A stretch of 64,000 nucleotides of DNA from Vicinamibacterales bacterium (GTDB taxonomy: Bacteria > Acidobacteriota > Vicinamibacteria > Vicinamibacterales > UBA8438). The DNA lies in NCBI GenBank assembly GCA_965207675.1, contig CBDBMY010000010.1, positions 745,000-808,999 of the forward strand. Direction: 5' to 3'. How positions within the stretch are numbered: position 1 is the stretch's first letter; each line of letters starts with the position of its first letter. This document shows positions 9,370 through 32,068 of the stretch, in pieces. A program made the translations under genes and the position numbers. The notes beneath the pieces were generated by a model. The model saw only the letters and a list, made by a program, of their open reading frames with translations, was not told the origin of the DNA and made no database searches.

Positions 9370-9568
9370 TCAAGCCCGTAGCCGTTCGGCGAGCGGCTGG
9401 GCGGTGCGTGGCGTTCCGCCACCCGCGGCCATCGCGCCTCCGGTGCACCGGCATCGGGGCGTCGCGCCCGCGGGACGGCGGCGGTTCACGCACCGGCACA
9501 TGGACCCGCTGTGCATCGGTGGCGGCGCGCCGCCGTCCATGAACGGGTCGCATCACGAGGGCGCAATC

Positions 9569-10510: not shown

Positions 10511-10520
10511 GGAGCAGCAG

Positions 10521-12373: not shown

Positions 12374-12384
12374 GGGGCGAACGG

Positions 12385-12864
12385 ATGACGATTCGGACGG
12401 CACTGACGGCAGGGCTGCTCGTTGCCGCAACGGCGTTTCCGCTCGCGGCCGGGGGCGGGCAGCAGGCGAGGACACGGAGACCCGAGCCGCAGGTCGAGTT
12501 CGTCCAGACCGTCGGCTGCGTCGAGCGCCGGACCCGGGAGGAGTCGACCTGGTGGCTGACCCGCGCCGCCGAGCCCACGGTGACGCGGGCGGGCGTCTTC
12601 AACGAGGACCAGGTCGGCGAGGCTCGGGAGACCGCCTTCGGCGACGGCGAGTTCCGCCTCATCGGATTCGCCGACTTCCTGACCCCCGAGGGCCTGCTGA
12701 ACTTCGGCGACCGCGCCCTCTTCACCGACCCCGACCAGATCAACGCCAGCGGCGAGTTGCGGCCGGGCCGCACGGTGCTCGTGAAGGGCCTCCTCATCGA
12801 GACCGACGGGGAGTCGCGCATCAACCTCACGTCGGTGGTCGGCCTCGCCGACGCCTGCGAGTGA
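12385..12864 (+). CDS. Secreted hypothetical protein
   Basis: ATG 11 nt after the previous stop; signal peptide MTIRTALTAGLLVAATAFPLAAG. Confidence 0.6.
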   Translation: MTIRTALTAGLLVAATAFPLAAGGGQQARTRRPEPQVEFVQTVGCVERRTREESTWWLTRAAEPTVTRAGVFNEDQVGEARETAFGDGEFRLIGFADFLTPEGLLNFGDRALFTDPDQINASGELRPGRTVLVKGLLIETDGESRINLTSVVGLADACE

Positions 12865-13231
12865 GCGGTCGCGGGTGGCCGCGGCGTCTCGCGCCGACGG
12901 GGCCGCCTGCGCGCCAGCCGGCGTGTTCCGGGCCGGCGGACGGGCGAGACTCGCGCCACCGCTCGATGCCGCGGCCCCGTCGTCTCCCGGCCCGTCCCTC
13001 GGTCCCCTGGATCCATGACTCTCGCGCCTGGACGACCGCGGGTGACTGCGGGCCGGGGCCGTCGCCGCTATCGTGGACGACCGCGTCCGCGATAGCGCTA
13101 CCTGCGACCCACCGCAACAGCGGGTCGAGGGGACGGTGCAATGCTGACGACGGGCGTCGAGGGGACGCGCAATGCCGACACGACGGTGAGGGTCGCGGTC
13201 GGCCCGGACACGGAACTCGCAGGAGGTCGAC

Positions 13232-14935
13232 ATGAAGCGTCGCGCGTTGCTCGCGGTGTGCGTATTCGCCGGCGTCGTCCTGGCGACGGCGTATCCCGGT
13301 CAGGCGCAGGTGCGGGAGGTCACTCCGGTCACCGACGCGATGCTGCAGAATCCCGACCCCGCCGACTGGTTGAGCTGGCGGCGCACCCTCGACGGGTGGG
13401 GATACAGCCCGCTCGACGAGATCGACCGCGGCAACGTGGGCGAGTTGCGGCTCGCCTGGTCCTGGGGCCTCGAGCCCGGGGTGTCGCAGACGACGCCGAT
13501 CGTGCACGACGGCGTCATGTACGTCGCGAACCCCGGCAACGTGGTCCAGGCCCTCGACGCGCGCACCGGCGACTTCATCTGGGAGTACCGCCGCGAGATG
13601 GACGAGCGGCGCCGGAGCGCGGCGCAGATGCGCAGCCTCGCCGTCCACCGGGACCTGGTCATCCTGAACACCGTCGACGCGCACGTCGTCGGGCTCGATG
13701 CCCGAACCGGCGAGGCGCGCTGGGACACGCCGGTCGCGGGCGGCCAGGAGGGCTACACCTTCTCGAACGGGCCGATCGTCGTCGACGGGACGGTCGTCGC
13801 GGGCCTGACGGGCTGCGGGCGCTACCGCGACGACACCTGCTACGTCGTCGGCGTCGACTCCGGCACCGGCCGGCTGCTCTGGCGAACCTCGACCATCGCC
13901 CGGCCCGGCGAGAGCGGCGGCGACACCTGGGGCGACCTGCCGCTCATGTTCCGCGCCGGCGCCGACGCCTGGATGACCGGGAGCTACGACCCCGTCACCG
14001 GGCTCGTCTACTGGGGTACTTCGCAGCCCAAGCCGCACAACCGCGACGCCCGCGGCACGGCCGGCGACGCCCTCTACAGCAACTCGACCCTCGCGCTCGA
14101 CCCCGCGACCGGCGAGATGAGGTGGTACTACCAGCACATCCCGGGCGATTCGCACGACATGGACGAGTCGTTCGAGCGCATCCTGATCGACTACGACGGC
14201 CGGCAGTCGCTGTTCACGATGGGCAAGCTCGGCATTCTCTGGGAGCTCGACCGCGTCACCGGCGAGTTCCGGCGCGCGCTCGATCTCGGCTACCAGAACA
14301 TCGTGGACGTCCACCCGCGGACCGGCGAGGTGACCCATCGCGACGGGATGCTGTCGGACGTCGGCGAGGAGCTCTTCTTCTGCCCCAGCACCGGCGGCTT
14401 CAAGAGCTTGCGGGCGATGGCGTATCACCCCGGGACCGAGGCGCTGTACGTGCCGCTCAACCTCAACTGCGAGACCGCCGCCTTCGCCCCCGTCGAGCGA
14501 CGGGCCGGGGGCGGCGGGGGCGGCGCCGTGCGCGGCCGGCTGAACCACTTTCATCCCCAGGCGCCGGACCAGCTCGGCGAGCTCCAGGCGCTGGATCTTC
14601 GGACCGGCGAGACCCTCTGGCGCCAGCGTCTCCGGGTGCCCTACAACACGTCGGCGCTGACGACCGGCGGCGGCCTGGTGTTCATCGGCGACTGGGGGCG
14701 GCGCGTCCACGCCTACGACGTGCGGACCGGCGAGCCCCTCTGGCAGAGCCGGCTCCCGACCATGGCGAACGGGTTCCCCATCACCTATGCCGTCGACGGC
14801 CGGCAGTTCGTCGCGTTCGTGGCCGGCCCGTCCATCGGCGGCTCGAGCTGGGCGACGATCCTCCCGGCCGACCTCCTTCCCGAAGAGCGCAACCCGCGGG
14901 GCGGCAGCGGCGTCTTCGTCTTCGCGTTGCCCTGA
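13232..14935 (+). CDS. PQQ-dependent dehydrogenase (methanol/ethanol-family-like quinoprotein beta-propeller), paralog 1
   Basis: AGGAGG SD and a signal peptide. The N-terminal signature VTDAMLQNPDPADWLSWRRTLDGWGYSPLDEI is followed by repeated W-motif propeller blades. Confidence 0.85.
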   Translation: MKRRALLAVCVFAGVVLATAYPGQAQVREVTPVTDAMLQNPDPADWLSWRRTLDGWGYSPLDEIDRGNVGELRLAWSWGLEPGVSQTTPIVHDGVMYVANPGNVVQALDARTGDFIWEYRREMDERRRSAAQMRSLAVHRDLVILNTVDAHVVGLDARTGEARWDTPVAGGQEGYTFSNGPIVVDGTVVAGLTGCGRYRDDTCYVVGVDSGTGRLLWRTSTIARPGESGGDTWGDLPLMFRAGADAWMTGSYDPVTGLVYWGTSQPKPHNRDARGTAGDALYSNSTLALDPATGEMRWYYQHIPGDSHDMDESFERILIDYDGRQSLFTMGKLGILWELDRVTGEFRRALDLGYQNIVDVHPRTGEVTHRDGMLSDVGEELFFCPSTGGFKSLRAMAYHPGTEALYVPLNLNCETAAFAPVERRAGGGGGGAVRGRLNHFHPQAPDQLGELQALDLRTGETLWRQRLRVPYNTSALTTGGGLVFIGDWGRRVHAYDVRTGEPLWQSRLPTMANGFPITYAVDGRQFVAFVAGPSIGGSSWATILPADLLPEERNPRGGSGVFVFALP

Positions 14936-17672: not shown

Positions 17673-18833
17673 TTACGCCGCACGCTTGACGTCAGTGCCC
17701 GCGCGTCGGTTGATCCTCACGAACAGCTTCAGAAACAGCTCGACCGGAGCCAGCCGTATCGCCACTTCGCGGATGCCGCACGCGACGGGGTTCATGGCGC
17801 GCATGACTCTCGCCGTCCGGCGCCCTTGGGCCACGAGGACGGCCGTCTTCGGGAGCCGCTCCCGTTCGTACGCCCGCAGGGCGTCCGCCACGTTCGCGCC
17901 TTCACCGAGGGCCTGGCCGAGGGCGACGGCGTCGACAATCGCCTGGGCCGCGCCCTGGCCGGTGTGCGGCAGCAATGGATGCGCGGCGTCCCCGAGCAGC
18001 GTCACGACACCCTCGCCCCAGTGCGGCAGGGGGTCGCGGTCGACCAGCTCATCGCAACGCAGCTCGTCGGTATCGGACGCGACGGCACGAAAGGTCGCAT
18101 CCATGCGCGGCGACATGTGCGCCACGATGGCGGCGGGGTCCCGCGTATCGGGCGGGACGATCTCGCGCGCGAGCGACAGATACCAGTAGATCGCGGTGTC
18201 GCCGGCCCGGACGAGAACCGACTCGAGACCCCGACCGAGGTACATGATGGCGGACAGGTCGCCCAGATGATGCCCGGCGTCGGAAGCGCCCCGCACCGCG
18301 ACGATGCCGCACGCCCGCGGCGGCGGCTCCGAGGGATGGAGCATGCGGCGGATGGCGGACCCGACCCCGTCCGCCCCGATCAGCAGGTCACCCTCGGCGG
18401 TCTCGCCGGACGCGGTGTGGATGGCGACCCGGTCGCCGTCCGCCCTGAATCCGGTGACTCTGCTCCCGAACGTGATCGCGTCCGGACCGAGCGCCTCGAG
18501 CAAGGCGCCGTACAGCGCCGAGCGAACGGTGACGACCATCGGACCGCCGAGCGCTGCCTCGGACGACGGCAACTCGGCGCGCTTCAGAACCGTGCCGTCC
18601 ATGCGGCGGAGCTCGCCGCGCGTCGGCCGGAAGCCGCGTGCCAGAACGGCGTCGGCGACGCCCAGTTGGCGGAGCGCCGCGATGGCGTTGGGCGCCATGC
18701 CGAGCCCGAAGCCGAGCTCCCGCGCCGATGCCGCGCGCTCGAACAGCCGAACCTCCCAACCCGCTTGCCGGAGAGCGATTCCGGCCGACAGGCCGCCGAT
18801 GCCCGCGCCGACGATGAGGGCGGTACGCTTCAT
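17673..18833 (-). CDS. FAD-dependent monooxygenase (UbiH/salicylate-hydroxylase class), paralog A
   Basis: MKRTALIVGAGIGGLSAGIAL dinucleotide-binding motif, DGVGSAIR, and GDAAHPLLPHTGQGAAQAIVDA FAD-binding motif. Confidence 0.85.
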   Translation of the reverse strand: MKRTALIVGAGIGGLSAGIALRQAGWEVRLFERAASARELGFGLGMAPNAIAALRQLGVADAVLARGFRPTRGELRRMDGTVLKRAELPSSEAALGGPMVVTVRSALYGALLEALGPDAITFGSRVTGFRADGDRVAIHTASGETAEGDLLIGADGVGSAIRRMLHPSEPPPRACGIVAVRGASDAGHHLGDLSAIMYLGRGLESVLVRAGDTAIYWYLSLAREIVPPDTRDPAAIVAHMSPRMDATFRAVASDTDELRCDELVDRDPLPHWGEGVVTLLGDAAHPLLPHTGQGAAQAIVDAVALGQALGEGANVADALRAYERERLPKTAVLVAQGRRTARVMRAMNPVACGIREVAIRLAPVELFLKLFVRINRRAGTDVKRAA

Positions 18834-18990
18834 CCGCGGGTACCTCCAAACGAGACAGGGCATATGCCGTCCGCGTGCCGTCCCGGCGAGGTTGGCATGG
18901 ACGAAAGCGTCTCAACCTCGACGACATCGGCGGCTGCTCCTCGACAGGCCGGTGCGGCGATGACGCCCCACCGTAGATGCGGCTGCAACA

Positions 18991-20273
18991 CTACCGGCTG
19001 ACGTCGGTCCCGGCGCGGCGATTGATGGCCGCCCACATCTTCACCAGGGGCTTGATGGGCGTCAGCCGCACGGCGACTTCGCGCAGCCGGCACGCCACCG
19101 GGTTCGTGGTGCCCATGATGCGTGCCGTCCGGCGTCCCTGGGCCACCAGGACCGCCGTCTTCTCGCCCCGGTCGCGCTCGTACGCCCGCAACGCGTCGCC
19201 GACGTTCGCGCTCTCGCCTAGCGCAACGCTCGCATCTCGCTTGACCGGCGCACGCTGGCCGCCACTAGCTAGCTAGCGGGAACCTAGGGGACGCGCTTTG
19301 ACCCCCACGCCCGCAACGCGTCGCCGACGTTCGCGCTCTCGCCTAGCGCCTTCCCGAGCGCCACCGCGTCGACCATCGCTTGCGCCGCGCCCTGGCCGGT
19401 GTGCGGCAGCACCGGGTGGGCCGCGTCTCCGAGCAGGGTGACGACGCCCCTGCCCCAGAACGGCAGCGGGTCGCGATCGAAGAGCTCGTCGACGCGCATG
19501 TCGGTGGTCCCCGACGTCACCACGCGGAACGTCTCGTCGAACCACGGCGACACGTGCCTCAGAATCGCCGCCGGATCCCGCATGCCGGCCGGCAGCAGCT
19601 CCTGCGCCAGCCCGAGCCCCCAGTAGATGCCGGTGTCGCTCGCCCGGGCCAGGAACGATTCCACCCCTCGTCCCATGTAGTGGATGCCGGACAGGCCGTC
19701 GAGGTGATCCACGGCACCGTGCGCCGCCGCGCGCACCGCGATGAGGCCGCTCGACCGCGGCGGCGGCTCCGACGGATGAAGTGCACGCCGAATCACCGAC
19801 CCGGCGCCGTCCGCGCCGACCAGCAGGTCGCCCTCGGCGGCGTCTCCGTCCGCGGTCCGCAGAGTGACACGGTCGCCCGCCACCGAGAACCCGGTCGCTT
19901 CGCAGTCGAGCGTGACCGCGTCCTCCCCGATCGCCTCCAGCAGGGAGCCGTGGACGGCCGGCCGCAACGCCACCACCGTCGGGCCGCCCATCACCTCCGG
20001 CGGGGGGAAGTCCGCACGCTTCAGGATGGTGCCGTCCATCCGCCGCGCCTCGCCCCGCGTCGGCACGACCCCGCGGGCCAGCACCACGTCGGCGACGCCC
20101 AGCTCGCGCAGCGCCGCCATCGCGTTCGGGGCCACGAGCAGCGCGAAACCGAGCTCCCGCACCGACGCGGCGCGCTCGAAGACGCGGACGTTCCAGCCCG
20201 CCTTGCGGAGGGAGATGGCAGCCGAGAGGCCGCCGATGCCGGCACCGACGATGAAGGCTGTGCGGAAACCCAC
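18991..20273 (-). pseudogene. FAD-dependent monooxygenase paralog B, split by a 124-bp insertion/duplication
   Basis: The 5-prime part (19284-20273) ends ...ALGESANVGDALRAWGSKRVP-stop. The 3-prime part (18991-19224) resumes ALGESANVGDALRAYERDRGEKTAVLVAQGRRTARIM..., matching the C-terminus of paralog A. Confidence 0.75.
19225..19306. other. Insert of about 80 bp containing CTAGCTAGCTAG (19265-19276; stops in all six frames) plus an adjacent CCTAGG, bounded by 43-bp perfect direct repeats (19182-19224 and 19307-19349)
   Basis: Read directly from the sequence. This is the only (CTAG)n run in the window, and CTAG is otherwise sparse here. Confidence 0.9.
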
Positions 20274-20450: not shown

Positions 20451-20636
20451 TCAAGGGGCTTCGTGCGCATCGATGATGGTCCTGGCGACGCGGAACCCGA
20501 CGGTGTCCCGGCGCTGCGATGGGAAGTACGTCTGACGACTCGCGCCGCCGCGGTGCGCGGAGCGCATGACGTCCGCCCCGGACGGAAACGAGCCACCACG
20601 TCTTGTTCGGGCCAGCTCGTTGCTCACGACGAGCAC
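20451..20636 (-). pseudogene. C-terminal fragment of a formylglycine-generating-enzyme (SUMF1/FGE-sulfatase) domain protein
   Basis: RGGSFPSGADVMRSAHRGG...RRDTVGFRVAR matches the conserved C-terminal RGGSW...R...GFR motif. No upstream part of the domain is present. Confidence 0.45.
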
Positions 20637-20644
20637 GGGATCTC

Positions 20645-20822
20645 GCCGTTGGGGGTGAAGTCGAGGATCTCCGTCTCCCAGACGAGCTCGCCGGTGCGGG
20701 CGTCGACGGCGTAGATGTAGTCGTCGTTGCTCGTGTCGATGATGCGGGTGCCGTGGATGGCGATGTTGCGGTTCAAGCTGACGAGGCCGCGGATGTAGTC
20801 GTCGATGTCGTCGGGTTGATAC
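20645..20822 (-). pseudogene. Internal fragment of a PQQ dehydrogenase paralog
   Basis: PDDIDDYIRGLVSLNRNIAIHGTRIIDTSNDDYIYAVDARTGELVWETEILDFT. Nt 20709-20815 differ at one position from 24713-24819 of paralog 2. Confidence 0.75.
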
Positions 20823-20862
20823 AGGACACTAGTAGGTCGCTCATGGGCCGGGCTCTGGACGG

Positions 20863-21756
20863 CTACGACGTGACGGTGACCTTCACATAGCCATTCGTCC
20901 AGCAGCACTGGTTGCCGGCGGAGCTGTCGACCCGGCCGAAGCTGTCGGCGCGCACACGGATCACGTACTCGCCCGGCTGCTGGAAGGTCGCAGTCGTGGT
21001 CACCATCCCCTCTGTCTCGGCGAGCGGCTCCGTGTGCGGGCTGAAGACCACCGCGCCCGGACCGGCATGCTTGAACCAGGTCACGTTCAGCGCCGCGGGG
21101 TCGCCCCGCCGTCTGACCGGGAGCGGTTCTTCGTCCCGCACGCTGTCATCATGGAGCCAGACGGTCAGTGAAAGCGGCGTGTCCACCGACGCGCGCATCG
21201 GCTCCGCGTCGATCCCGGTGGGACCCCGGCCGGCAGGGCCGTCGGGGCTGAAGCGGACCAGTGGGGGCTGCGACCCCATAGCCATCGGCCATCGGAGCTG
21301 GTAGGCACCGGTCTTGGCGCTTCCAGGCACGGAGAAGGTCCGTTCCTGGTTGACCAGGGTCCAGACGACGTCGCCGCTGAAGCTGGCCGGCACGGTCACG
21401 GTGAACACCCCCCGCTCCCGGTCTCGCCGGCGCCTGCTCGTGGCGCCCCCACGCGCGACAGGCGGGAACGACGTGGGTTGCCGGCCGTCGAACTCCGCCG
21501 GTTCGATGAAGTTGTCAGGACCCAGGGGAATCTCCAGAACCTCGGTCAGGTTGAGGTTGGAATAGCCGAACGACAGGGTGAAGGTTCCATCCGGATTCCG
21601 GTACCAGCCGTCGAAGAACGGGGCCACCCGAAGTCCGTTCGGCGGCAGCGGGGTAAGTGGTCGTTCTCGCTGGGCCCACAGCGATGGGGAGCCGATGAGC
21701 ATTGCGGCTGCGAGGCCGCCCGCGAGCCATCGTCCGAGCACTGGCGTTCCCTCCAT
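20863..21756 (-). CDS. Secreted hypothetical protein, last gene of the quinoprotein/monooxygenase cluster
   Basis: Start MEGTPVLGRWLAGGLAAAMLIGSPSLWAQ (signal peptide). 297 aa, ending ...NQCCWTNGYVKVTVTS. No family recognised. Confidence 0.65.
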   Translation of the reverse strand: MEGTPVLGRWLAGGLAAAMLIGSPSLWAQRERPLTPLPPNGLRVAPFFDGWYRNPDGTFTLSFGYSNLNLTEVLEIPLGPDNFIEPAEFDGRQPTSFPPVARGGATSRRRRDRERGVFTVTVPASFSGDVVWTLVNQERTFSVPGSAKTGAYQLRWPMAMGSQPPLVRFSPDGPAGRGPTGIDAEPMRASVDTPLSLTVWLHDDSVRDEEPLPVRRRGDPAALNVTWFKHAGPGAVVFSPHTEPLAETEGMVTTTATFQQPGEYVIRVRADSFGRVDSSAGNQCCWTNGYVKVTVTS

Positions 21757-21842
21757 CAACGCGTTGCCGCCGAAAAGCGAGAGAGCCTCTCGATACCGAG
21801 AGGCTCTCTCGCCACAGACCAATTCCGCACGTCTCCGTGCTG

Positions 21843-23201
21843 CTACTCCTCGTTGTCCGTCTGCCTGCGACTCTCCCGCTCGGCCGCCAGACGCTCGTAG
21901 CCCTCGTCGTCGAGATGCGTCACGGCGATCCATGCATGCGACATCTCGTCCGCCGTACGGCTGCCCGGTCCCACCCACTGATTCGGGTCGGGGTTCTGCG
22001 GGTTCCCGGCCGTATTGTCGTAGTAGCCGGTGATCACCAGGACGGACCCCGCCGGGACGAGCGGTGCGGCGTCTTCTGCGTAGATGTGACTGGTGTGCCA
22101 GTCGTTGGTCCAGTTGGACACCGAGCTCACCATCTCCAGCTCGCCCGTCTTCGGATGGAAGATCTCGAGAGTCTTGCCCACCAGACGGAAGTGACCGTGC
22201 GGTTGGAAGCTGTCGATCCGCACCGGGGTCTCGAAGGAATGGAACCCCTGCGTCATCGCCGTGCCATGCGGTGGGAGCTCGAGCTCGCTGCCCTTCATCA
22301 GCAGGGAATACAGCTTGAGATCCTGTTGGTATTGCACCTGCTCCTGATGGCCCTCCGGGTAGAGCCACACGCCCATCTCGACCACGTCGTTCTCGATGAC
22401 CTCGCCGGTCGGATAGTAGTGGACGTCCCAACTGACCATCGAGTCGGCCGGGAGGAGACGACAGGCGTCCTCCGGAACGATCTCGCCGACCTTCCCGAGC
22501 GCGTACTCGGAGAGCCGCTCGACCTGGACCCACTCCCCGCTCTCCTCGTCGAAACCGAGCACCTGGCTGTTGGCGTGGTGCGCGGCGGCGCGCCCCTCGG
22601 GCGACGGCTTGACGGAGACCGCCTTGAGGCACCGGTCCTCGGTCAGGCCGGTCGGCACGATCGGCCGCCACCAGACGTCCGACCCATCGGCCGCCAGCGT
22701 GTACGGCTTCGTCCGGATCACCAGGTCCGGCGGGCCGAACTCATCCGCATAGGCCCACTCGCTGAGATCCGGAAACGACAGCGGCGGCGGAAGATCGGCC
22801 GGGTCGCCAAGGGGTGCCCCGTCGTCCACCCAGCGGGCTATCGTCTCGATTTCGGACAGGCTCAGCCGGAGGTCGTCCTTCAGCTCCTGAATCCCGATGT
22901 CGCGGTCGTATCGATAGGGCGGCATCTCGCCCGTTACCACGCGCTGCTTGATCGACCGAGCCCAGGGGCGCACTTCCTGGTAGGTCGTGAGCGACATCGG
23001 GCCGATCGAGCCGGGCCGGTGGCACTGCTGGCAGTTGCTCTGGAAAATCGGGGCGATGTCCCGAGCGAAGGTCACCGCGGGCGCGTCGCCGGGCGATTGG
23101 GCCGCCGCGGGCGCGCCCCAGGTCACACTGAGGACAGCGACCCCAAGACTCCAGGCAACCACCCGGCCGCCCGACGAAGCGTGGAGGGGAATGTTGAGCA
23201 T
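21843..23201 (-). CDS. c-type cytochrome domain fused to a PHM/DBH-like (copper type II ascorbate-dependent monooxygenase-like) dicopper domain
   Basis: Signal peptide, then FARDIAPIFQSNCQQCHRPGSIGPMSL (CxxCH). Candidate CuH ligands are AAHHAN and WDVHYYP. Candidate CuM ligands are FQPHGHFRL and ADEMSHAW. Confidence 0.7.
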   Translation of the reverse strand: MLNIPLHASSGGRVVAWSLGVAVLSVTWGAPAAAQSPGDAPAVTFARDIAPIFQSNCQQCHRPGSIGPMSLTTYQEVRPWARSIKQRVVTGEMPPYRYDRDIGIQELKDDLRLSLSEIETIARWVDDGAPLGDPADLPPPLSFPDLSEWAYADEFGPPDLVIRTKPYTLAADGSDVWWRPIVPTGLTEDRCLKAVSVKPSPEGRAAAHHANSQVLGFDEESGEWVQVERLSEYALGKVGEIVPEDACRLLPADSMVSWDVHYYPTGEVIENDVVEMGVWLYPEGHQEQVQYQQDLKLYSLLMKGSELELPPHGTAMTQGFHSFETPVRIDSFQPHGHFRLVGKTLEIFHPKTGELEMVSSVSNWTNDWHTSHIYAEDAAPLVPAGSVLVITGYYDNTAGNPQNPDPNQWVGPGSRTADEMSHAWIAVTHLDDEGYERLAAERESRRQTDNEE

Positions 23202-23439
23202 AACGACACCTCTCAGGACACCCTGGTTCCGAAACGCACATCCTACTACAGAATGTCCGTCCCGGGCGAGTTCTCGATTCGTGGCCGCTGGGCCGGCAAC
23301 CCCGTCGGTCAGCTCAAGCCAATGGCAGGGTCTGCTTGGCGCTCACAAGCTACTGACTACACGGGGTTTACGGCAAACAGGCTGTCCGTGGTTCACGTGA
23401 CTGTCAGCACAGCCCTGGACCCCAACGGAATCTCATTGG

Positions 23440-25197
23440 TCACTCAGGCAGGGCGAACACGAACAGGTTGTTCCCCGCGCTGGGCCGCAGCTCCGGCGTC
23501 AGCCCGAGGAACCCCGACGCGGTGCCGGCCGAGCCGGTGCCGACGGCGACGTACTGGCGGCCGTCGACGGCGTAGCTGATCGGGAAGCTCGTCACCGCCG
23601 AGCCGAGGTTGATCTCCCACAGCACCTCGCCCGTGTCCTGGTCGAACGCCCGGAACCGCCCGTTCACGTCGCCGCCGAACACCAGTCCGCCGCCGGTCGC
23701 GACGAGCGACATGGTGGCGGAGCGCTGCGAGTGGAGCCAGCGCGTCTCCCCCGTCTCGGCCGAGATCGCCTGCACGGTGCCGACCTGGTCCATGCCCGGC
23801 GCGATCTGGTTGCGGACGGCGAGGGCGTAGTGGCTGCCGGCGTCGGTCGAGGCGAGCATGCGCGCGCAGACGTTGCGCAGCGGCATGTACATGGTGTTGG
23901 TCAGGGGGCTGTAGGCGCCCGCCTCCCAGTCCTTGCCGCCGAACCAGCTCGGGCACGCCAGCACCTCCTGGCCCTCGGCGGTGAAGACGATCTCGCCGTT
24001 GGGGGTGACCGCCCCGGTGGCGCCGTCGATGTCGGTGATGACGTTCTGGGGGACGGTCGGGGTGGCCCAGAGGAACTCGCCGGTCTCGCGGTCGAGGGTG
24101 TAGACGACGCCGGTCTTGCCGGGGATGCCGGTCACCACCCGCCGCGTCTCGCCGGCGGTGAGGCCGGGGTTGATCCAGGCGACGGCGGCGGGGTCGGGGG
24201 CGACCGCGGTGTCGACGAGGAGCCGCTCGAACGGATGGTCGAGGTCCCAGTGGTCGTTCAGGTGCTGGTAGTACCAGACTATCTCGCCGGTGTCGCCGTC
24301 GAGGGCCAGCGTCGAGTTGTGGTAGAGGTGCGTGTTCTCGATGCCGCCCCGCAGGAACTTCGGTGCCGGCGAGGTGACCGAGGTGCCGACGTAGACGAGG
24401 TTCAGCTCGGGGTCGAAGCTGGGGGCGGTCCACGACCCGACGTGCACGCGGTCTTCGAAGGGCACGTCGCCCCACGTCTCGTCGCCGGGCTCGCCGGGGG
24501 CGGGCACGAGCCGCCGGCGCCACAGCTCGTCGCCGGTCTCGGCGTCGTGGGCCACGATGACGCACGCCTCGGGTCCCGCCCACGGCCGGCAGCTTCTTCC
24601 CGAGAACGCCTTGCCGGCGGCGGTGATGGGGCCCGACGAGTGCCGGGCGGGGTTCACCGTGTAGTCGAGGATCTCGGTCTCCCAGACCATCTCGCCGGTT
24701 CGGGCGTCGAGGGCGTAGATGTAGTCGTCGTTGCTCGTGTCGATGATGCGGGTGCCGTGGATGGCGATGTTGCGGTTCACGCTGACGAGGCCGCGGATGT
24801 AGTCGTCGATGTCGTCGGGCAGGTCGCGGCGGTGCTCCCAGAGGAGATCGCCGGTCACCGCGTCGATGGCCTGGGTGACGTCGTTGGGGTTCGGCATGTA
24901 GAGGACGCCGCCGTAGGCGATGGGCGTGCCCTGCTGGCTGCCGGACGCGAGGGCCCGCGTCCACACCATGCGCAGGTCGCCGACGTTGGTGCGGTCGATC
25001 TGGTCGAGGGGGCTGTAGCCCCAGCCGTCGAGGGTGCGGCGCCACATGAGCCAGTCGCCGTCGGCCGGGTCCGCGAGCATGGCGTCGGTGACGGGGACGA
25101 AGTCGTCGCCGGTCTGCGCGGCGGGGTGCGAGACGAAGGCCGCCGCGACGACGGCCGCCGCCGTCAGCCAACGGACTGCGGTATGCGCTCGGTTCAT
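23440..25197 (-). CDS. PQQ-dependent dehydrogenase (quinoprotein beta-propeller), paralog 2
   Basis: Signal peptide, then VTDAMLADPADGDWLMWRRTLDGWGYSPLDQI, collinear with paralog 1. Confidence 0.85.
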   Translation of the reverse strand: MNRAHTAVRWLTAAAVVAAAFVSHPAAQTGDDFVPVTDAMLADPADGDWLMWRRTLDGWGYSPLDQIDRTNVGDLRMVWTRALASGSQQGTPIAYGGVLYMPNPNDVTQAIDAVTGDLLWEHRRDLPDDIDDYIRGLVSVNRNIAIHGTRIIDTSNDDYIYALDARTGEMVWETEILDYTVNPARHSSGPITAAGKAFSGRSCRPWAGPEACVIVAHDAETGDELWRRRLVPAPGEPGDETWGDVPFEDRVHVGSWTAPSFDPELNLVYVGTSVTSPAPKFLRGGIENTHLYHNSTLALDGDTGEIVWYYQHLNDHWDLDHPFERLLVDTAVAPDPAAVAWINPGLTAGETRRVVTGIPGKTGVVYTLDRETGEFLWATPTVPQNVITDIDGATGAVTPNGEIVFTAEGQEVLACPSWFGGKDWEAGAYSPLTNTMYMPLRNVCARMLASTDAGSHYALAVRNQIAPGMDQVGTVQAISAETGETRWLHSQRSATMSLVATGGGLVFGGDVNGRFRAFDQDTGEVLWEINLGSAVTSFPISYAVDGRQYVAVGTGSAGTASGFLGLTPELRPSAGNNLFVFALPE

Positions 25198-25269
25198 GGT
25201 CGTGACTCCCGTCCGTGATTGCGGGGCGATCTGTACTGAGGCCCCATTCTACCCGTGTCCGTGAGGCAC

Positions 25270-26316
25270 TCACTGCCAGCGGAACACGCGCAACGCGACC
25301 ACGAACGAGACCGCGCCCCAGCCGGCGAGGATGCCGAGCTCGCCGCCGACGCCGGCCAGCCCGTGGCCGTTCAGCATCACGCCGCGCAGCGCGTCGATCA
25401 TCGCGGTGAGGGGGAGCACGCGGATGAACGGCTGGGCCGCCTCGGGGAAGTTCGTCACCGCGAAGAACACCCCACTGCAGATGAACATGGGCATCATCGC
25501 CACGTTCATGATGCCGGAGACGCCCTCGATGGTGCGGGCGCGGCTCGCCGTCAGCAGCCCGATGCCCCCGAAGGCGAGGGCGCCGAGAAGCGCCACCGCC
25601 AGGAGGGTCGCGAAGCCCCCCTCGCTCCCGACGCCGAAGAACCAGGCGGCGAACCCGAGGAGCGCGAGCATCTCGAGGCCCAGGAACGCGAGCCGGGAGA
25701 TGACCAGCGACGCCAGGAAATGCGAGCGGCGCATGGGGGTGGCGACCATCCGCTTCAGCAGCTTGCGCGACCGCGCCACCACGATGCCGAACCCGAGCCC
25801 CCACATGCCCGAGCTCATGATGTTCATGCCGAGCAGGCCCGGCACCAGCCAGTCGATGTACCGGCTGCCGGGGGTCGCGACCTCCTCGGTCCGGGCCGCC
25901 CCCGCGGGGGCGTGACCGGCCTCGCCGGCCAGGGCCCGGTCGACGAGCAGGCGCGCGAGGCGGCTCTCGGGGCGGACCGGGTCGTAGCGGTACGTCGGGG
26001 GCGATCCGGACACCACGACGAGATGCGCGCGCCCGTCCCGCAGCAGGGCCAGCTCGTCCTCCTCCGAGGCGGCGAACGGCTCCAGGTCGCCGGTGCGCGC
26101 CAGCGCGTCGAGGACCGGCGCCGCGCCCGGCGCGTCCCTGACCGCCACCGGCACCGGCTCCTCCCCGCGGGCCTGGAACGCGATGCCGAGGGCCAGGGCC
26201 ATGAGGATGGGGAAGACGAAGATCCAGAACACCATCTCCGGCTCGCGGATGGTCAGCTTGAACCGGGCGAGGGTCAGGGCGGCGAGCGGCTGCCGCATGA
26301 GGCCGCCGTCAGCCAT
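25270..26316 (-). CDS. ABC-2 type exporter permease
   Basis: Six-TM ABC-2 layout. The ATG overlaps the inferred stop of the ATPase gene (ATGGCTGA). Confidence 0.8.
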   Translation of the reverse strand: MADGGLMRQPLAALTLARFKLTIREPEMVFWIFVFPILMALALGIAFQARGEEPVPVAVRDAPGAAPVLDALARTGDLEPFAASEEDELALLRDGRAHLVVVSGSPPTYRYDPVRPESRLARLLVDRALAGEAGHAPAGAARTEEVATPGSRYIDWLVPGLLGMNIMSSGMWGLGFGIVVARSRKLLKRMVATPMRRSHFLASLVISRLAFLGLEMLALLGFAAWFFGVGSEGGFATLLAVALLGALAFGGIGLLTASRARTIEGVSGIMNVAMMPMFICSGVFFAVTNFPEAAQPFIRVLPLTAMIDALRGVMLNGHGLAGVGGELGILAGWGAVSFVVALRVFRWQ

Positions 26317-27272
26317 CGCGGAGGTGCCTTCCCGTCAGCGAGACGAAGACGTCCTCCAGGGTCGCGGCGTGGCTCGTGACCGAGTCGAGCGCGACCCCGG
26401 CTTCCTCGGCGAAGCCGCAACAGGGCCGGCAGCGTCTGCTGCAGGTCCTCGGCCCCGAGCTGCCGCCGGTCCCCGTCGCGGCCGACGCCCCTGACGCCCG
26501 GCAGCGCGGCCAGCCGCGCGTCGAGCTCGTGCCCGTCGGTGGCGCCTTCCTGTCCGGCCGACAGGCCGAACTCGATGACGTGGGCCGCCCCCAGCGAGGC
26601 GATCAGCTCGCGCGGCGTCCCCTCCGCGATGACGCGGCCCCCGTCGACGATGGCCACGCGGTCGCAGAGCACCTGCGCCTCGTCCATGTAGTGGGTGGTC
26701 AGCAGGATGCTGCCGTCCGCGGCCCGGAACCGCTGCAGCACCGACCAGAGCTGCCGGCGCGACTGGGGGTCGAGCCCCGTCGTCGGCTCGTCGAGGAAGA
26801 GCAGCTCGGGGTCGCCGACGAGCGCGCACCCCACGGCCAGCCGCTGGCGCTGCCCGCCCGAGAGATGGACGACCCACGTGCCCGCCTTCGATTCGAGGCC
26901 GACCGTCTGCAGCACGCCGGCGACCGGCCGCCCCTCGCGGTAGAACGAGCGGAACAGCCCGAGGGTCTCGGCCACCGTCAGCCTCTCGTCGAACTGCGTC
27001 TCCTGCAGGTGGATGCCGAGCCGTTGCCGCAACGCGTCGTCATCCGCGCCCCACCGCGTCCCCAGCACCTCGACCGCGCCCGCGTCCGGCGCCAGCAGCC
27101 CCTCGAGGATCTCGATGGTGGTCGTCTTGCCGGCCCCGTTCGGCCCCAGCAGGCCGAAGCACTCGCCGCGGCGCACCGCGAGATCGAGCCCGTCGACCGC
27201 GGTCAGGTCGCCGTAGCGCTTCACGAGGCCCCGGCAACCGAGGGCCGGACTGCCGGCCATGGTCGAAGACAT
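26309..27272 (-). CDS. ABC transporter ATP-binding protein (DrrA/CcmA-like) with a probable 1-nt frameshift near the 3-prime end
   Basis: Walker A GLLGPNGAGKTTT, signature LSGGQRQRL, Walker B LLFLDEPTTGLD. After ...QQTLPALLR (near 26408-26418) the family-typical tail FAEEAGVALDSVTSHAATLEDVFVSLTGRHLRDG-stop is in the adjacent frame. Confidence 0.8.
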
Positions 27273-27285
27273 CGCCAGGAGCCGT

Positions 27286-29626
27286 TCAGAACCGGAGCAG
27301 GCGGTTCACCTTGACGATGAACGCCCGGTTGTTGAGGACCGGGAACCGTCCGAACCCGTCGAGCCCGGTGTTCCGGTCCTCGTTGTAGACGACGAAGAGC
27401 TCGCTGCCGGGGCGGTACTCCCAGCGGAAGCGGATGTTCGCCGACACCTGGTTCAGGCGCGAGTTGTACTGCACGAGGGCGCTCGCGAACATGAGCGGCG
27501 TCATCGTGTAGGTGGTCCGCGCGCCGACGAGATCGGTCCGGAACTCGCCCTGGGGCAGGTCGATCCAGTTGATCGACAGCGAAGGCTCGACCGAGAACTG
27601 GTTGGTGATGGTGACCCGGCCGCGGCTGACGCCGAGGGTGGTCTTGGTCCCCCCGTAGAAGGAGCCGTGCTCGGCCATGACGTTGGCCGAGAAGCGGCGC
27701 TGCTGGCCGAAGTTGTAGCCGAGCTGCAGGTTCGTGAAGTCGTAGCCGGCGACGGGGAGGACGACGCCGGGCGCGATGCGGAACGGCCGGGGCAGGAACT
27801 CGTACGAGTCGATGGCGCTGACGGTGAGCTGGTCGCTGTTCTCCCACTCGATGGTGAACAGGCCTGTGGCCTCGCGGGTCTCGACCGCCCCGCCCAGGTT
27901 CTCGACGTAGGCGAGCGAGCCGGTGCCGACGAAGCGCCGCACCGCCGCGATCGACGCGGGGCGCGGGCTGAAGCGGAACTCCGCGAAGCTGCGGCGCATG
28001 TCGCGCCGCCGCACGAAGCCGACCTCGGGGCGGAAGTCGGGGCCGATCAGCAGGTGCTCGAGCTGCACGCCGTAGCGGTCGCCGGCGTAGTCGAGGTGGC
28101 CCCGGTAGCTGGTGTCGTTGCCGGTCAGGCCGCCGGTCGAGGTGCGGGCCCAGTGGGTGTTGACGGTGAGGTCGTCGTAGAAGCCGAAGGCGCCGTCGAC
28201 GCCGTACGCGGCGTTCGACCCGTCGCCGAGCTGGTGGCGCGACCGGCCCGTGAACATGGCCCCGACGCTGCTGCGCCGCAGGACGTCGCGCTTGGCCCGC
28301 AGCACCGTGAAGTTCGTCGGCAGGACCTCGGGCGGCTCGTCGTCCCGCGCGCGGGGGTCGAGCAGGTCCGCGGGCGTCTCGTCCTCGAACGGGAGCGCGC
28401 CGGCGTGGATGTTGAGGGCGCCCAGGGTCCAGAGGCCGGCCCGCCCGGTCAGCCGCCCCCCCGCCCGCAACGGCACCTCCCGGGCCTGGTGGAGGCCGAT
28501 GCGACGGCTGTAGAAGAGGATAGGCGTGTCGCTGACGCCGGCGAGCCGGCCGCTCGTCGACGCCCCCCCGAAGCTGAACGTCCCCTGGTTCTCCAGGAAG
28601 AACTCGCGCTTCTCGGGGAAGAACAGGTTGAAGCGGGTCAGGTTGATCTGCTGCTCGTCGGCCTCGACCTGGGCGAAGTCGGGGTTGGCGGTGAAGTCGG
28701 CGGTCAGCCCCTGCGTGACGCCGTACTTGACGTCGAGGCCCAGGTCGCCGCCCGGATCGTTGGTCGTCGACCCCGACGCGGCGGCGGTGGTGACGTCCCC
28801 GATGACGTACGGCTTGACCTCGACCAGCCGCGACGCCTCGGGGGCGTCGATGCCCACGAGGGTGGCCGCGAGCGAGGCGCGGAAGTGCCCGCGCAGGCTC
28901 TGGGCGGCCGAGAGGGGGGTGAGGTAGGACGACTCGTTCCGCCAGCGGTTGACTCTCCGCGCCTGGAAGCCCCAGGTCTGGGGGCCGGCGCCGGGATAGC
29001 GGAGCGACTTGAACGGCAGCGCCGTCTCCATCACCCATCCCCCCTCGAACCGGCCGACGGCGACGTCGTAGACCGGGTTCCAGTCGATGTTGATCTGCGA
29101 CTCGTTGACGACCTCGGCGTCGAGCCGGCCGCCGACCGCCGACACCTCGAAGAGCACCCCGTTGCGGCGGGAGTAGAAGGTGTCGAACGACCACGCGAAG
29201 TTGTCGTCGCGCACGATGCGGATGTTGTCGCGCCGCATCTCGCTCGCCATGACGCGGTCCGGCCGCGACTCCCAGCAGCGGGCGACCACGTAGACCTGGT
29301 CGTCGTCGAACAGCAGCCACACCTCGGTCTTCTCCGAGGCCGGCGCGCCCTCCACGGGGTCGTTCTGGATGAAGTCGGACATCGACGCGACCCGGGCGTA
29401 GACCGCCTCGTCGAGCCGGCCGTCGATGCGGAGCGGGGCGTCGATGCGGACCGCGCGGACGGTCACGCCGGAGCCGTCGCGGGCGATGACGGCGGGCGGG
29501 ACGGGGGGCGGGGGGCCGAAGATCTGCGTCGGCCGCGGGGCCAGGGCCTGCTGGGCGGCGGCGCCAGTCGCGCCCGCTGCCGCCAGCAGGAGGGCGGCGA
29601 GGGCCCGGAAAGCTGCTATACTGATT
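27286..29626 (-). CDS. CBM9-like / DUF5916 domain-containing secreted (probably outer-membrane) protein
   Basis: Signal-like AAFRALAALLLAAAGATGAAAQQ, then RIDGRLDEAVYARVASMSDFIQNDPVEGAPASEKTEVWLLFDDDQVYVVARC (CBM9-like) and a long beta-rich C-terminal region. The start codon is uncertain: no ATG/GTG/TTG lies between the signal peptide and the tRNA. Confidence 0.65.
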
Positions 29627-29640
29627 GTTCCCCGGCCGTG

Positions 29641-29717
29641 CGCCCTTAGCTCAGCTGGATAGAGCGTCTGGCTACGAACCAGGAGGCCGCAGGTTCGAAT
29701 CCTGCAGGGCGCGCCAC
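29641..29717 (+). tRNA. tRNA-Arg (anticodon ACG), CCA encoded
   Basis: Cloverleaf folded by hand: acceptor GCGCCCT/AGGGCGC, anticodon loop CTACGAA, T-arm GCAGGTTCGAATCCTGC. Confidence 0.9.
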
Positions 29718-30100: not shown

Positions 30101-32068
30101 GTGTCATTCAGACAGATGCGTTGGACCCTTGCCGCGTTCTCGCTCGCTCTGCTCGCGCTGGCGGCCTCCGCCGAGGCGCAGCCGGCCGGCGACCTCGAGT
30201 GGCCGACCTACGGCGGCGACCTCGCGAGCACCCGCTACTCGCCGGCCGACCTGATCACGGCCGACAACTTCGGCGACCTCGAGCTCGCGTGGACGCTCGG
30301 CACCGACAACTTCGGCCCCGAGCCCGAGTACAACCTGCAGTCGACGCCCCTCATGGTCGGCGGGGTCCTGTACACGACCGCGGGCACCCGGCGGGCCGTC
30401 GTCGCGGCCGACGCGGCGACCGGCGAGCTGCTGTGGACGCACCGCCTCGACGAGGGCGAGCGGGGCGCGGCGGCGCCGCGGCGGCTGTCGGGGCGCGGCC
30501 TGGCGTACCGCGACGACGGCGGCGCGGGCGAGATCTTCTACGTCACGCCGGGCTACCAGCTCATCGGCCTCGACGCCGCGACGGGCCGCCGGCTGCCGGG
30601 CTTCGGCGAGGACGGCATCGTCGACCTGAAGCTGACCCTGGACCAGGACATCGACCCGGTGACGGGCGAGGTGGGGCTGCACGCCGCCCCCATCGTGTCC
30701 GGCGACACCATCGTGGTCGGGGCCGCGCACCTGCCGGGCGGCCGGCCGCGGTCGATGCAGAACGTCAAGGGGCACATCCGCGGCTTCGACGCCCGCACCG
30801 GCGACCGGAAGTGGATCTTCCACACCGTGCCCGGCGCCGACGAGTTCGGCAACGACACCTGGCTCGGCGACTCGTGGCGCTACACCGGCAACACCGGGGT
30901 GTGGGGGCAGATGACCGTCGACGCCGAGCTCGGCATCGCCTACTTCGCCACCGAGATGCCCACCAACGACTACTACGGCGGGCACCGGCACGGCGACAAC
31001 CTGTTCTCGGACAGCCTCGTGGCCGTCGACCTCGAGACCGGCGAGCGCCTCTGGCACTTCCAGTTCATCCACCACGACGTCTGGGACTGGGACCTGCCGT
31101 GCGCGCCGATCCTCGTGGACATCACCGTCGACGGGCGGGAGATCAAGGCCATCGCCCAACCCAGCAAGCAGACGTGGCTCTACGTCTTCGACCGGGTCAC
31201 CGGCGAGCCGGTGTGGCCCATCGAGGAGCGCCCCGTCGAGGCGTCGAACGTGCCGGGCGAGCTGCTGGCCCTCACCCAGCCGTTCCCCACCCGGCCCCCC
31301 GCCTACGACCGGCAGGGGGTGGGCGTCGACGACCTCGTCGACTTCACGCCCGAGCTGCGGGCCGAGGCCGAGCGCATCGTGTCGAACTACCGCATGGGCC
31401 CGATCTTCACGCCACCGACGGTCTCGGTGCCCGAGGGGCCGTGGGGCACCCTGATGCTGCCGTCGCAGGCGGGGGGCACGAACTGGCCGGGGGCCTCGTA
31501 CGACCCCGAGACCGGCATCATGTACCTCTACAGCTACACGCAGGTGGTGTCGCTGGGGCTCGTCAACGACCCCGAGCAGTCGGACATGAACTTCATCCGG
31601 GGGCGGTCGCCGGAGATCTCGGCCGCCGAGGCGTCGCTGACCATCGAGGGCATTCCCATCATCAAGCCGCCGTGGGGGCGGATCACGGCCATCGATCTCA
31701 ACCAGGGCGAGATTCTCTGGCAGGTGCCGCACGGCGAGACGCCCGACAACATCCGCAACCATCCGCGGCTGGAGGGGGTCGACATCCCCCGTACCGGGCG
31801 GGTCGGGCGCATCGGTACCCTGAACACGAAGACCCTCGTCATCGCCGGCGAGGGGGGGATCTTCACCACGCCGTCGGGCGAGCCCGGCGCCATGCTCCGG
31901 GCCTACGACAAGATGACCGGCGAGGAGGTCGGCGAGGTCTACATGCCGGCGCCGCAGTCCGGATCGCCGATGACCTACGTGCTCGACGGCGTGCAGTACA
32001 TCGTGGTCGCCACCAGCGGCAGCGGCCAGCCCGGCCGGCTGCTGGCGTACCGGCTGCCGCCGGACTAG
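30101..32068 (+). CDS. PQQ-dependent dehydrogenase (glucose/quinate/shikimate-family-like, soluble with a signal peptide), paralog 3
   Basis: Signal peptide, then WPTYGGDLASTRYSPADLITADNFGDLELAW and propeller repeats. 655 aa. Confidence 0.85.
   Translation: MSFRQMRWTLAAFSLALLALAASAEAQPAGDLEWPTYGGDLASTRYSPADLITADNFGDLELAWTLGTDNFGPEPEYNLQSTPLMVGGVLYTTAGTRRAVVAADAATGELLWTHRLDEGERGAAAPRRLSGRGLAYRDDGGAGEIFYVTPGYQLIGLDAATGRRLPGFGEDGIVDLKLTLDQDIDPVTGEVGLHAAPIVSGDTIVVGAAHLPGGRPRSMQNVKGHIRGFDARTGDRKWIFHTVPGADEFGNDTWLGDSWRYTGNTGVWGQMTVDAELGIAYFATEMPTNDYYGGHRHGDNLFSDSLVAVDLETGERLWHFQFIHHDVWDWDLPCAPILVDITVDGREIKAIAQPSKQTWLYVFDRVTGEPVWPIEERPVEASNVPGELLALTQPFPTRPPAYDRQGVGVDDLVDFTPELRAEAERIVSNYRMGPIFTPPTVSVPEGPWGTLMLPSQAGGTNWPGASYDPETGIMYLYSYTQVVSLGLVNDPEQSDMNFIRGRSPEISAAEASLTIEGIPIIKPPWGRITAIDLNQGEILWQVPHGETPDNIRNHPRLEGVDIPRTGRVGRIGTLNTKTLVIAGEGGIFTTPSGEPGAMLRAYDKMTGEEVGEVYMPAPQSGSPMTYVLDGVQYIVVATSGSGQPGRLLAYRLPPD

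Follow-up and report, generated by a model that had tools for sequence, protein, structure and literature searches.

Copper monooxygenases of the PHM/DBH type are the textbook neuropeptide and catecholamine enzymes of animals, and their two uncoupled copper sites, CuH and CuM, have long been a mechanistic puzzle. PHM, DBH and tyramine beta-monooxygenase (PF01082 plus PF03712) are extracytoplasmic proteins with a fold of two beta-sandwich domains and the ligand pattern HH..H / HxH..M. In the bacterial periplasm, the type II quinohaemoprotein alcohol dehydrogenases (1kb0, 1kv9, 1yiq) are a precedent for electron flow from pyrroloquinoline quinone (PQQ) to haem c. Here we examine a stretch of 64,000 nucleotides (the window) from a Vicinamibacterales bacterium (GenBank assembly GCA_965207675.1, contig CBDBMY010000010.1, positions 745,000 to 808,999 of the forward strand) in which six consecutive minus-strand genes, g1 to g6, bring such themes together. 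A preliminary description, made from the sequence alone, had suggested that the six genes form one periplasmic or extracellular oxidative system. We arrive at a different picture. The layout is a lineage-specific juxtaposition of three units, i.e., a DUF5916 protein (g1), an ABC-2 exporter with a PQQ dehydrogenase (g2-g3-g4), and a haem-copper protein with its partner (g5-g6). On balance, we consider it rather probable that these three units merely adjoin each other and that g5-g6 encodes an ascorbate-independent, haem-fed dicopper monooxygenase together with an obligate partner. The genes and the one long spacer are:

27286-29625, minus strand: g1, DUF5916 protein (PF19313, signal peptide)
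26274-27272, minus strand: g2, ABC ATPase, DrrA/NodI-like (PF00005)
25270-26316, minus strand: g3, ABC-2 permease (PF12698 plus PF01061)
23440-25197, minus strand: g4, soluble periplasmic PQQ-dependent alcohol/sugar dehydrogenase (PF01011, alignment to PDB 4cvb)
23202-23439, minus strand: g4-g5 spacer of 238 nt (GC content, blastn conservation)
21843-23201, minus strand: g5, signal peptide, mono-haem cytochrome c and predicted PHM/DBH-fold dicopper domain (model, Foldseek, invariant residues)
20863-21756, minus strand: g6, secreted 297-aa partner of g5 (synteny, invariant residues)

The GC content of the window is about 71% and, as a consequence, lists of open reading frames (ORFs) are full of spurious frames. 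Genes were called from the ORF listing with a GC3 frame filter and by inspection of the translations. The gaps from g1 to g6 are 13, -43 (an overlap), 72, 238 and 86 nt, identical to those first given, and all six gene identities were likewise retained. The interval 20863-29626 of the preliminary description is one base off at its end, 29625 being the outer limit of g1. All four secreted products, those of g1, g4, g5 and g6, possess signal peptides, which bears out the proposed periplasmic or envelope location.

The Pfam scan of g5 reports only a weak cytochrome c match (PF13442, 23.2 bits at a cut-off of 27). PF13442 is seen in 21 of 21 g5 homologues and PF14376 in 20 of the 21. The cytochrome c domain comprises approximately residues 44-130 (nt 22812-23072) and carries the haem motif C57-Q-Q-C60-H61 (CQQCH, nt 23019-23033). 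A CxxCH is present in every family sequence in which the N-terminus is covered (76/76), and M93 of a GEMPP motif is invariant (81/81). An AlphaFold model built on 21 homologues has a mean predicted local distance difference test score (pLDDT) of 61.7; residues 143-452 are mostly at 70-90, the haem domain is below 50. In this model residues 143-452 (nt 21846-22775) fold into two tandem beta-sandwich domains of the PHM/DBH type. When the model was searched against PDB with Foldseek the top 31 matches were, without exception, PHM or DBH (E 5e-10 to 1e-7, probability 1.00, about 300 aligned columns, target TM score 0.50-0.58). The first match to any other protein followed at E 1.4e-5.

The ligand pattern was examined in an alignment of 81 family members; they stem from related loci, and five of them are paralogues with 28-34% identity. 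H208, H209, H261, H335 and H337 are invariant (81/81), and M420 is present in 80 of the 81 sequences. The other five His residues of g5 which are conserved among close homologues vary in this alignment. The proposed copper ligands are positioned as follows:

22575-22580, minus strand: g5 H208-H209, proposed CuH ligands (invariance and the HH...H pattern of PHM)
22419-22421, minus strand: g5 H261, proposed third CuH ligand (invariance)
22191-22199, minus strand: g5 H335-G-H337, proposed CuM ligands (invariance)
21942-21944, minus strand: g5 M420 within ...ADEMSH..., proposed CuM ligand (80/81)

The surrounding motifs were compared with those of PHM, the sequence of which was checked in PDB. At the CuH site AHHAN and VHYYP of g5 stand against VHHML and VHYGD of PHM; at the CuM site PHGHF and ADEMSH stand against VHTHH and SDEMCN. 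Further, a paralogue at L015:4354-5451 passes the gathering score of PF03712 (27.4 bits vs 23). Weaker matches to PF03712 were obtained in L035, L010, L015:6004, P0406 and P0443, and P0406 weakly matches both PF03712 and PF01082.

Several results weigh against a relationship with PHM. By phmmer or profile hmmsearch g5 has no match to any PDB sequence, and neither g5 nor its 21 close homologues match Pfam Cu2_monooxygen at E up to 10. An hhalign comparison of g5 with the verified rat PHM core yields a probability of 0.3. The model itself is only moderate, most evidently in the haem domain. The direct tests at the sequence level are empty, and homology of g5 to PHM has the support of the modelled fold, the arrangement of ligands and the bridge through paralogues only. 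The fold and ligands are shared, but the Pfam test failed, a haem domain is added and a partner gene is needed; for these reasons we file g5 as a distant bacterial variant which would work like PHM, and not as a regular member of that family. The suggestion of a PHM-like dicopper monooxygenase with a cytochrome c domain of its own was thus well taken: it is carried by the modelled fold, by ligand invariance and by the paralogues that lead to PF03712.

The family is large. It comprises >4569 clusters at 90% identity, and the C-terminal domain of g5 alone yields 3319 clusters at 50% identity (E up to 1e-3). Neither Pfam nor NCBIfam offers a model for the catalytic domain of g5 or for the G6 protein, and the g5 family members are consequently named just 'cytochrome c' or 'hypothetical'. 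A literature search retrieved no characterisation of this bacterial PHM-like family. The closest sequences, 98-99% identical to g5, reside on the chromosomes of several Vicinamibacterales metagenome-assembled genomes. In the wider superfamily P0443 and P0503 have AhpC/TSA-redoxin and thioredoxin-like domains fused to a core of cytochrome c and PHM-like domain, and EF-hand fusions occur in other relatives.

For the analysis of gene order, 80 GTDB loci anchored on g5 were collected with flanks of 10 kb. They were searched with the proteins of the window, and all predicted neighbours were clustered. Sixty-four of these loci have at least 1.2 kb of downstream sequence and are informative for g6. 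In 61 of them g6 is directly downstream of g5 on the same strand, in Vicinamibacterales, Acidimicrobiia and Gemmatimonadota/Longimicrobiales alike, and the gap is often only 4-30 nt. G6 is an obligate partner of G5. Clustering of the neighbours in the g5-anchored loci disclosed no other widely shared family.

What g6 encodes is less readily classified. It has 2736 homologues; the 120 listed are all called 'hypothetical protein', and not one of them has a Pfam match. g6 itself matches neither Pfam nor NCBIfam. A profile search against PDB gave no match for g6, and G6 paralogues gave only sub-threshold PKD matches. The structure model (pLDDT 57) predicts two immunoglobulin-like (Ig-like) beta-sandwich domains, and its structural matches are generic Ig-like, filamin or S-layer proteins. 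The sequence has an invariant Q283-C-C-W286 near the C-terminus (nt 20899-20910) and many further invariant Asp, Asn, Arg, Tyr and Trp residues. A WPMAMGS (MxM) motif and His230 are largely conserved. A function as an MxM-type Cu(I) chaperone was considered and is weakened by the wider alignment, in which M158, M160 and H230 are not strictly invariant. G6 may be a substrate-binding or substrate-presenting subunit, a role which we rank above that of a maturation target or a metal chaperone.

Some loci are more elaborate. A gene for a protein of 310-390 aa without a Pfam match is positioned directly after G6 in about 10 loci (L052-L055, L057, L058, L060, L063, L067, L072) and may be a lineage-specific third component. 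Tandem G5-G6 duplications and extra G5 paralogues within one locus were observed in L066, L070, L071 and L076 (Gemmatimonadota/Longimicrobiales) and in L010 and L015. Several genomes carry two to three separate G5 loci.

A different situation prevails for g1 to g4. These genes adjoin g5 only where g5 is at least 98% identical. The order g1-g6 is kept in the genomes of four related species (L001, L002, L003, L005); in L004 and L007 an insert of about 5 kb separates g4 from g5. In L056 a g5-g6 pair of 99% identity is preceded by entirely different genes, and none of g1-g4 is found within 10 kb. The converse was seen at the closer g1 orthologue loci, L161 and L165 (84-85% identity), L164 (84%), L162 (74%) and L163 (70%). 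L161 and L165 have a minus-strand PQQ2 gene, DUF5916, inserted AAA_15/21 genes, the ABC, ABC2 and PQQ genes, and then HicAB or DUF488, yet no g5-g6. In L162, L163 and L164 DUF5916 is present without ABC, PQQ or g5-g6 genes.

The g4-g5 spacer fits this division. Its GC content is 59.7% compared with 71% for the genome, its fold z-score is -2.3 and it has no Rfam match. By blastn, the g5-proximal 130-190 nt are kept upstream of g5 in L001-L007 and in L056 (78%), and the last 50 nt or so are still conserved in L008, L010 and L015, where g5 is 83-89% identical. Since this g5-proximal part is AT-richer than the genome and travels with g5 irrespective of the gene that precedes it, it is probably the promoter or leader of g5.

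The preliminary description had itself named non-conserved synteny in relatives as the observation that would speak against a single six-gene system. Synteny is indeed not conserved, only g5-g6 extends across phyla, and for this reason the six-gene system is unsupported. For the most part the arrangement reflects chance adjacency within a single lineage, and the ABC-2 exporter is outside the g5-g6 module. The boundary of six genes is arbitrary, a choice rather than a feature: the minus-strand run goes on downstream of g6 via two flavin adenine dinucleotide (FAD) monooxygenase genes to about 14998, and co-directionality alone is therefore unremarkable. Scans of the region for promoter and terminator sites returned neither. 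In one respect this counts against a strict division into units, because short gaps and no recognisable terminator leave read-through transcription of all six genes possible.

Links of the g5-g6 pair with DUF5916 and with PQQ dehydrogenases nevertheless recur. DUF5916 directly adjoins G5-G6-like pairs in L008, L094, L113 and L148, in differing gene orders and in unrelated lineages, and is near such pairs in L019, L060, L080 and L127. For comparison a DUF5916-anchored set was used, 80 metagenome loci with DUF5916 at 45-60% identity. Four cases in 497 kb of DUF5916 flank compare with 0.25-0.5 expected on the assumption of 3-6 pairs per 6 Mb (P 1e-4 to 2e-3). The density of PQQ-type propeller genes is 1.95 per 100 kb around G5 and 1.01 per 100 kb in the DUF5916-anchored control loci (P ~0.0075), and in L011, L068 and L080 PQQ dehydrogenase genes are directly beside G5/G6 and co-oriented.

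The strongest single item is an ORF of about 1086 aa at L055:16420-19686 (minus strand). It is uninterrupted, and a normal G5-G6 pair is present in the same locus as well. In order, it encodes a signal peptide, cytochrome c, sGDH (PF07995, E 2e-112), a second cytochrome c, a PHM-like domain with all six ligands, and TPR. In this Rosetta-stone fusion a PQQ sugar dehydrogenase is joined to the putative haem-copper module.

PQQ dehydrogenase sequence is also found on the far side of the pair in the window:

20655-20815, minus strand: remnant of a second PQQ dehydrogenase copy, 161 nt (blastn, tblastn)

This remnant is a direct repeat, 95.7% identical to nt 24659-24819 of g4 (blastn) and 48 nt downstream of g6. 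By tblastn it has 60% identity over 100 aa, and an overlapping minus-strand ORF extends from 20624 to 20908. The g5-g6 pair thus has PQQ dehydrogenase sequence on either flank. In L001 and L004 more of the second copy is left.

The wiring of G5 to PQQ dehydrogenases has its own weak points. The enrichment is only about two-fold and the control is crude. The background of PQQ dehydrogenases is high: three are encoded in the window (13232-14935, g4, and 30101-32068), and some marine Acidobacteria are reported to possess up to 70 PQQ dehydrogenases of the lanthanide type per genome (PMC11996626). The fusions of other relatives to AhpC/TSA-redoxin or EF-hand domains leave room for another electron partner or even another chemistry. 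As partners of g5-g6, PQQ dehydrogenases and DUF5916 are occasional and not fixed. Of the oxidative system as first proposed, the quinoprotein-monooxygenase and DUF5916-monooxygenase links stand, weakly and in a minority of unrelated lineages; membership of the ABC exporter does not.

In loci of the Gemmatimonadota type genes for six-bladed NHL-repeat propellers (cluster c8) are positioned beside G5, G6, PQQ or DUF5916 genes (L068:10906-11994 and L080:3145-4395, among others). In animal PAM the lyase half (PAL, 3fvz) is likewise built as an NHL propeller. An assignment of these neighbours as PAL-like lyases is only a lead, as the match to PAL 3fvz (9e-15) is far inferior to that with generic NHL proteins (4e-39).

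In the second unit, g2-g3-g4, the two genes of an ABC-2 exporter resembling DrrAB precede that of a soluble PQQ dehydrogenase. The three genes are contiguous in every relative carrying them (L001-L005, L007, L161, L165), i.e., contiguity is demonstrated in close relatives only. g2 matches PF00005 (ABC_tran) with 101 bits; its best NCBIfam match is TIGR01188 drrA (239.8 bits, below the cut-off of 312.45), and with TIGR03864, the PQQ-system ABC ATPase, it scores 158.9 bits at a cut-off of 302.25. The permease gene g3 has 43 nt in common with g2 and matches the ABC2_membrane families of Pfam (PF12698, PF01061). Its best match is drrB (67.9 bits, cut-off 223.05), and 48.1 bits with TIGR03861 PedC are far below the cut-off of 241.35. 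A Ped-type or GldA-type transporter was rejected because the scores are well below the cut-offs.

g4 matches the PQQ family PF01011 (207 bits vs a cut-off of 26.7); its 315.9 bits with the methanol/ethanol family TIGR03075 are below the cut-off of 480. It aligns over its full length with PDB 4cvb at E 1e-134, and with 7wmd and 4mh1 (range E 1e-134 to 1e-120). It has no haem domain and no vicinal Cys-Cys. Haem-less enzymes such as 4CVB, sorbose dehydrogenase and DepA require an external electron acceptor. Residues 317-320 of g4 read W-D-L-D (nt 24235-24249 including the following His), and D-x-D is treated in PMC11996626 as the lanthanide signature of a sorbose dehydrogenase clade that is rich in Acidobacteria. 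Among the window genes scanned no PQQ biosynthesis genes were seen. Of the other PQQ dehydrogenases of the window, PQQ2 (30101-32068, divergently placed) carries WDWD, i.e., D-x-D like g4, and the one at 13232-14935 is without WDxD.

The third unit is g1, which is a stand-alone unit. It matches PF19313 (DUF5916) with 71.1 bits vs a cut-off of 22.6, covering profile positions 7-97 of 572, and CBM9_1 (PF06452) with 19.1 bits, below the cut-off of 23.4; PF06452 is recorded for its homologues P0258, P0305 and P0314. With a signal peptide, an N-terminal CBM9-like domain and the C-terminal ...RLLRF, the g1 product is probably an outer-membrane beta-barrel. The DUF5916 profile has no match in PDB, and a literature search yielded no characterisation of DUF5916. 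In the metagenome loci DUF5916 is mostly a solitary gene (solitary in 78 loci), and an ABC gene is directly downstream in none of the 80 distant ones. The 5' end of g1 adjoins a tRNA gene, the sole match of the Rfam scan:

29640-29716, plus strand: tRNA-Arg(ACG) (ARAGORN; Rfam tRNA, 68.8 bits)

Between this tRNA and the g1 signal peptide there is no ATG, GTG or TTG, only ATC at 29625 or ATA at 29619. Database homologues of g1 are called 35-40 aa longer; an equivalent start would cross the tRNA.

The AAA_15/AAA_21 ATPase genes (OLD/AbiEii-like) at the g1/g2 junction of L161 and L165 have a counterpart in the window at 3637-4299, and HicAB follows the PQQ gene in L161. These neighbourhoods seem to collect insertions of the defence and toxin-antitoxin type.

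A few further features of the window are listed here for completeness. Downstream of g6 an HpxO/UbiH-like FAD monooxygenase gene (18991-20273, minus strand) is split into a 329-aa ORF (19284-20273) and, in a different frame, a 93-aa ORF (18991-19272) which matches the missing C-terminus; either a frameshift has turned the gene into a pseudogene or the sequence contains an error. Its paralogue at 17673-18863 is intact. On the plus strand, 9443-14935 contains cytochrome b561 (9443-10510), three small or unknown ORFs and the PQQ dehydrogenase at 13232-14935; this may be another unit. One of its genes, an unknown one of 361 aa at 11288-12373, belongs to a cluster with members near DUF5916 in 11 of the 80 metagenome loci. 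A second ABC-2 permease is present in the window. Plus-strand ORFs at 43486-44367 (the CarboxypepD_reg/Plug part of a TonB-type outer-membrane protein) and at 45506-46234 (a piece of a TonB-type beta-barrel, profile positions 501-681) look like fragments of one disrupted gene; intact TonB-type paralogues are at 38387-41539 and 49077-52160.

How might g5-g6 work? Once exported, G5 would act as a non-coupled dicopper monooxygenase independent of ascorbate. A donor other than ascorbate is suggested because a haem c domain is fused to g5. The two electrons per turnover would enter via this haem, which would stand in for ascorbate. Their periplasmic donors would be soluble cytochromes or, without an intermediary, a PQQ dehydrogenase such as g4. 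From the haem they would pass to CuH and then to CuM, where O2 would be activated and a C-H bond of a periplasmic substrate hydroxylated. G6 would bind or present the substrate, or serve as a maturation factor. A wider generalisation is tempting and must be labelled tentative, somewhat short of what we would defend: G5-G6 may be a large bacterial class of ascorbate-independent PHM/DBH-type monooxygenases, reduced by a built-in haem c and wired to periplasmic dehydrogenases, among which PQQ enzymes would be the natural donors as the L055 fusion suggests, with a dedicated partner of a new fold family and an extracytoplasmic substrate. As part of this generalisation, the NHL propeller neighbour could supply a PAL-like second step in some lineages.

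These proposals have to be weighed against others. In the model of the preliminary description the six genes are one operon in which the ABC-2 transporter exports a compound, DUF5916 retains it or hands it on at the outer membrane, and quinoprotein and monooxygenase oxidise it. Co-directional genes with short gaps, the same order in L001, L002, L003 and L005, the L055 fusion of PQQ dehydrogenase, cytochrome c and PHM-like domain, and DUF5916 beside G5-G6-like pairs in unrelated lineages above expectation are all consistent with this model. The ABC pair, however, is absent from all 80 DUF5916-anchored loci; of the other G5-G6 neighbourhoods only L042 has it, about 4 kb off and on the other strand. 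Insertions interrupt the g1/g2 junction (L161, L165) and the g4/g5 junction (L004, L007), L056 has the nearly identical g5-g6 without g1-g4, g5 has a conserved upstream region of its own, and approximately 95% of DUF5916 loci and 75% of G5 loci are without the proposed partners. We regard a single operon of this kind as unlikely. A haem-copper redox protein appears equally improbable, i.e., a G5 engaged in oxidative-stress, thiol or peroxide chemistry, in copper handling or as an O2/H2O2-reducing terminal electron sink, with G6 as an accessory or metal-handling protein. It would accommodate the thiol-peroxidase fusions of P0443 and P0503, the largely conserved MxM motif and His230 of G6, and the very heterogeneous flanks of G5-G6, which contain peptidases M28 and S9, aconitase-family, kinase, TonB-type barrel and FAA hydrolase genes and no recurring catabolic partner. 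Yet the full PHM ligand set including the CuM Met is invariant, and to our knowledge this set is specific to O2-activating PHM/DBH chemistry among known families. Besides, the Met and His residues of G6 are not strictly invariant in the wider alignment, and no copper-chaperone or peroxidase family matches G5 or G6.

A further alternative turns G6 into the substrate of G5. A residue such as W286 beside C284-C285 would be hydroxylated to a protein-derived quinone-like or cross-linked cofactor, and G6 would then be the functional enzyme or binding protein. Dedicated maturases which act on partner proteins are known, MauG on pre-MADH, LodB on LodA and MbnH on MbnP, and strict one-to-one pairing with gaps of often 4-30 nt and the invariant Q-C-C-W would suit such a role. 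Known PHM-family enzymes, on the other hand, act on small molecules or peptide termini, and the low-confidence G6 model shows generic Ig-like folds only. Further, among close relatives G5 is more conserved than G6 (99% vs 95-97%), unusual for a mere maturase. Of all explanations presented here we deem this one the least likely. We retain the haem-fed monooxygenase with G6 as its partner, adjoining two other units.

If this proposal is true, the haem c-fused bacterial branch would be a natural ascorbate-free system in which to study electron delivery to CuH and CuM. It would bring a new activity, the periplasmic hydroxylation of C-H bonds, to Acidobacteriota, Gemmatimonadota and Acidimicrobiia that abound in soils and the sea, and would provide a possible sink that couples PQQ dehydrogenases, perhaps lanthanide-dependent ones, to oxygenation chemistry. 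As a widespread putative haem-copper monooxygenase pair g5-g6 deserves experimental work. The locus also holds a warning for annotation: in these high-GC genomes, genes that share a direction and are closely spaced do not make up a system by that alone.

Finally, each unit can be set against what has been described. The ped/exa-type PQQ alcohol dehydrogenase clusters of Pseudomonas (TIGR03864, TIGR03861 PedC) likewise combine a PQQ dehydrogenase with an adjacent ABC ATPase and ABC-2 permease. The g2-g3-g4 trio differs in that it scores far below the cut-offs of these families, is nearer to DrrA/DrrB and NodI/NodJ, and has no PedF cytochrome, binding protein or regulator; its conservation is demonstrated within a narrow clade. 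g4 on its own aligns end to end with the PQQ alcohol dehydrogenase of Pseudogluconobacter saccharoketogenes (4CVB), with sorbose dehydrogenase (4MH1) and with the DepA type (7WMD); where 4CVB has WDSE, g4 has the D-x-D form WDLD. The type II quinohaemoproteins join PQQ and haem c in one enzyme and hand the electrons on to azurin or the respiratory chain; a copper monooxygenase is not their acceptor. g4, in contrast, has no haem domain and its nearest relatives are the haem-less 4CVB, SDH and DepA; here, the haem c is on the putative acceptor enzyme, and in L055 all parts reside on one polypeptide.

For g5 two comparisons matter. The AhpC/TSA-redoxin, cytochrome c and PHM-like proteins P0443 and P0503, for which a literature search found no characterisation, have the same core (E 1e-23 to 1e-29 from the C-terminal domain of g5) and, unlike g5, extra thiol-peroxidase or thioredoxin domains. 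With PHM, DBH and tyramine beta-monooxygenase g5 has in common the predicted two-domain beta-sandwich fold, the ligand pattern at similar spacing, the motifs VHY, HxH and DEM, and the extracytoplasmic location. It differs from them in being bacterial, in an identity to PHM of about 10% that neither HMMER nor hhalign picks up, and in having neither a DOMON nor a PAL domain. Instead, it has what the PHM type does not have, an N-terminally fused c-type haem domain and an obligate separate partner gene, G6.

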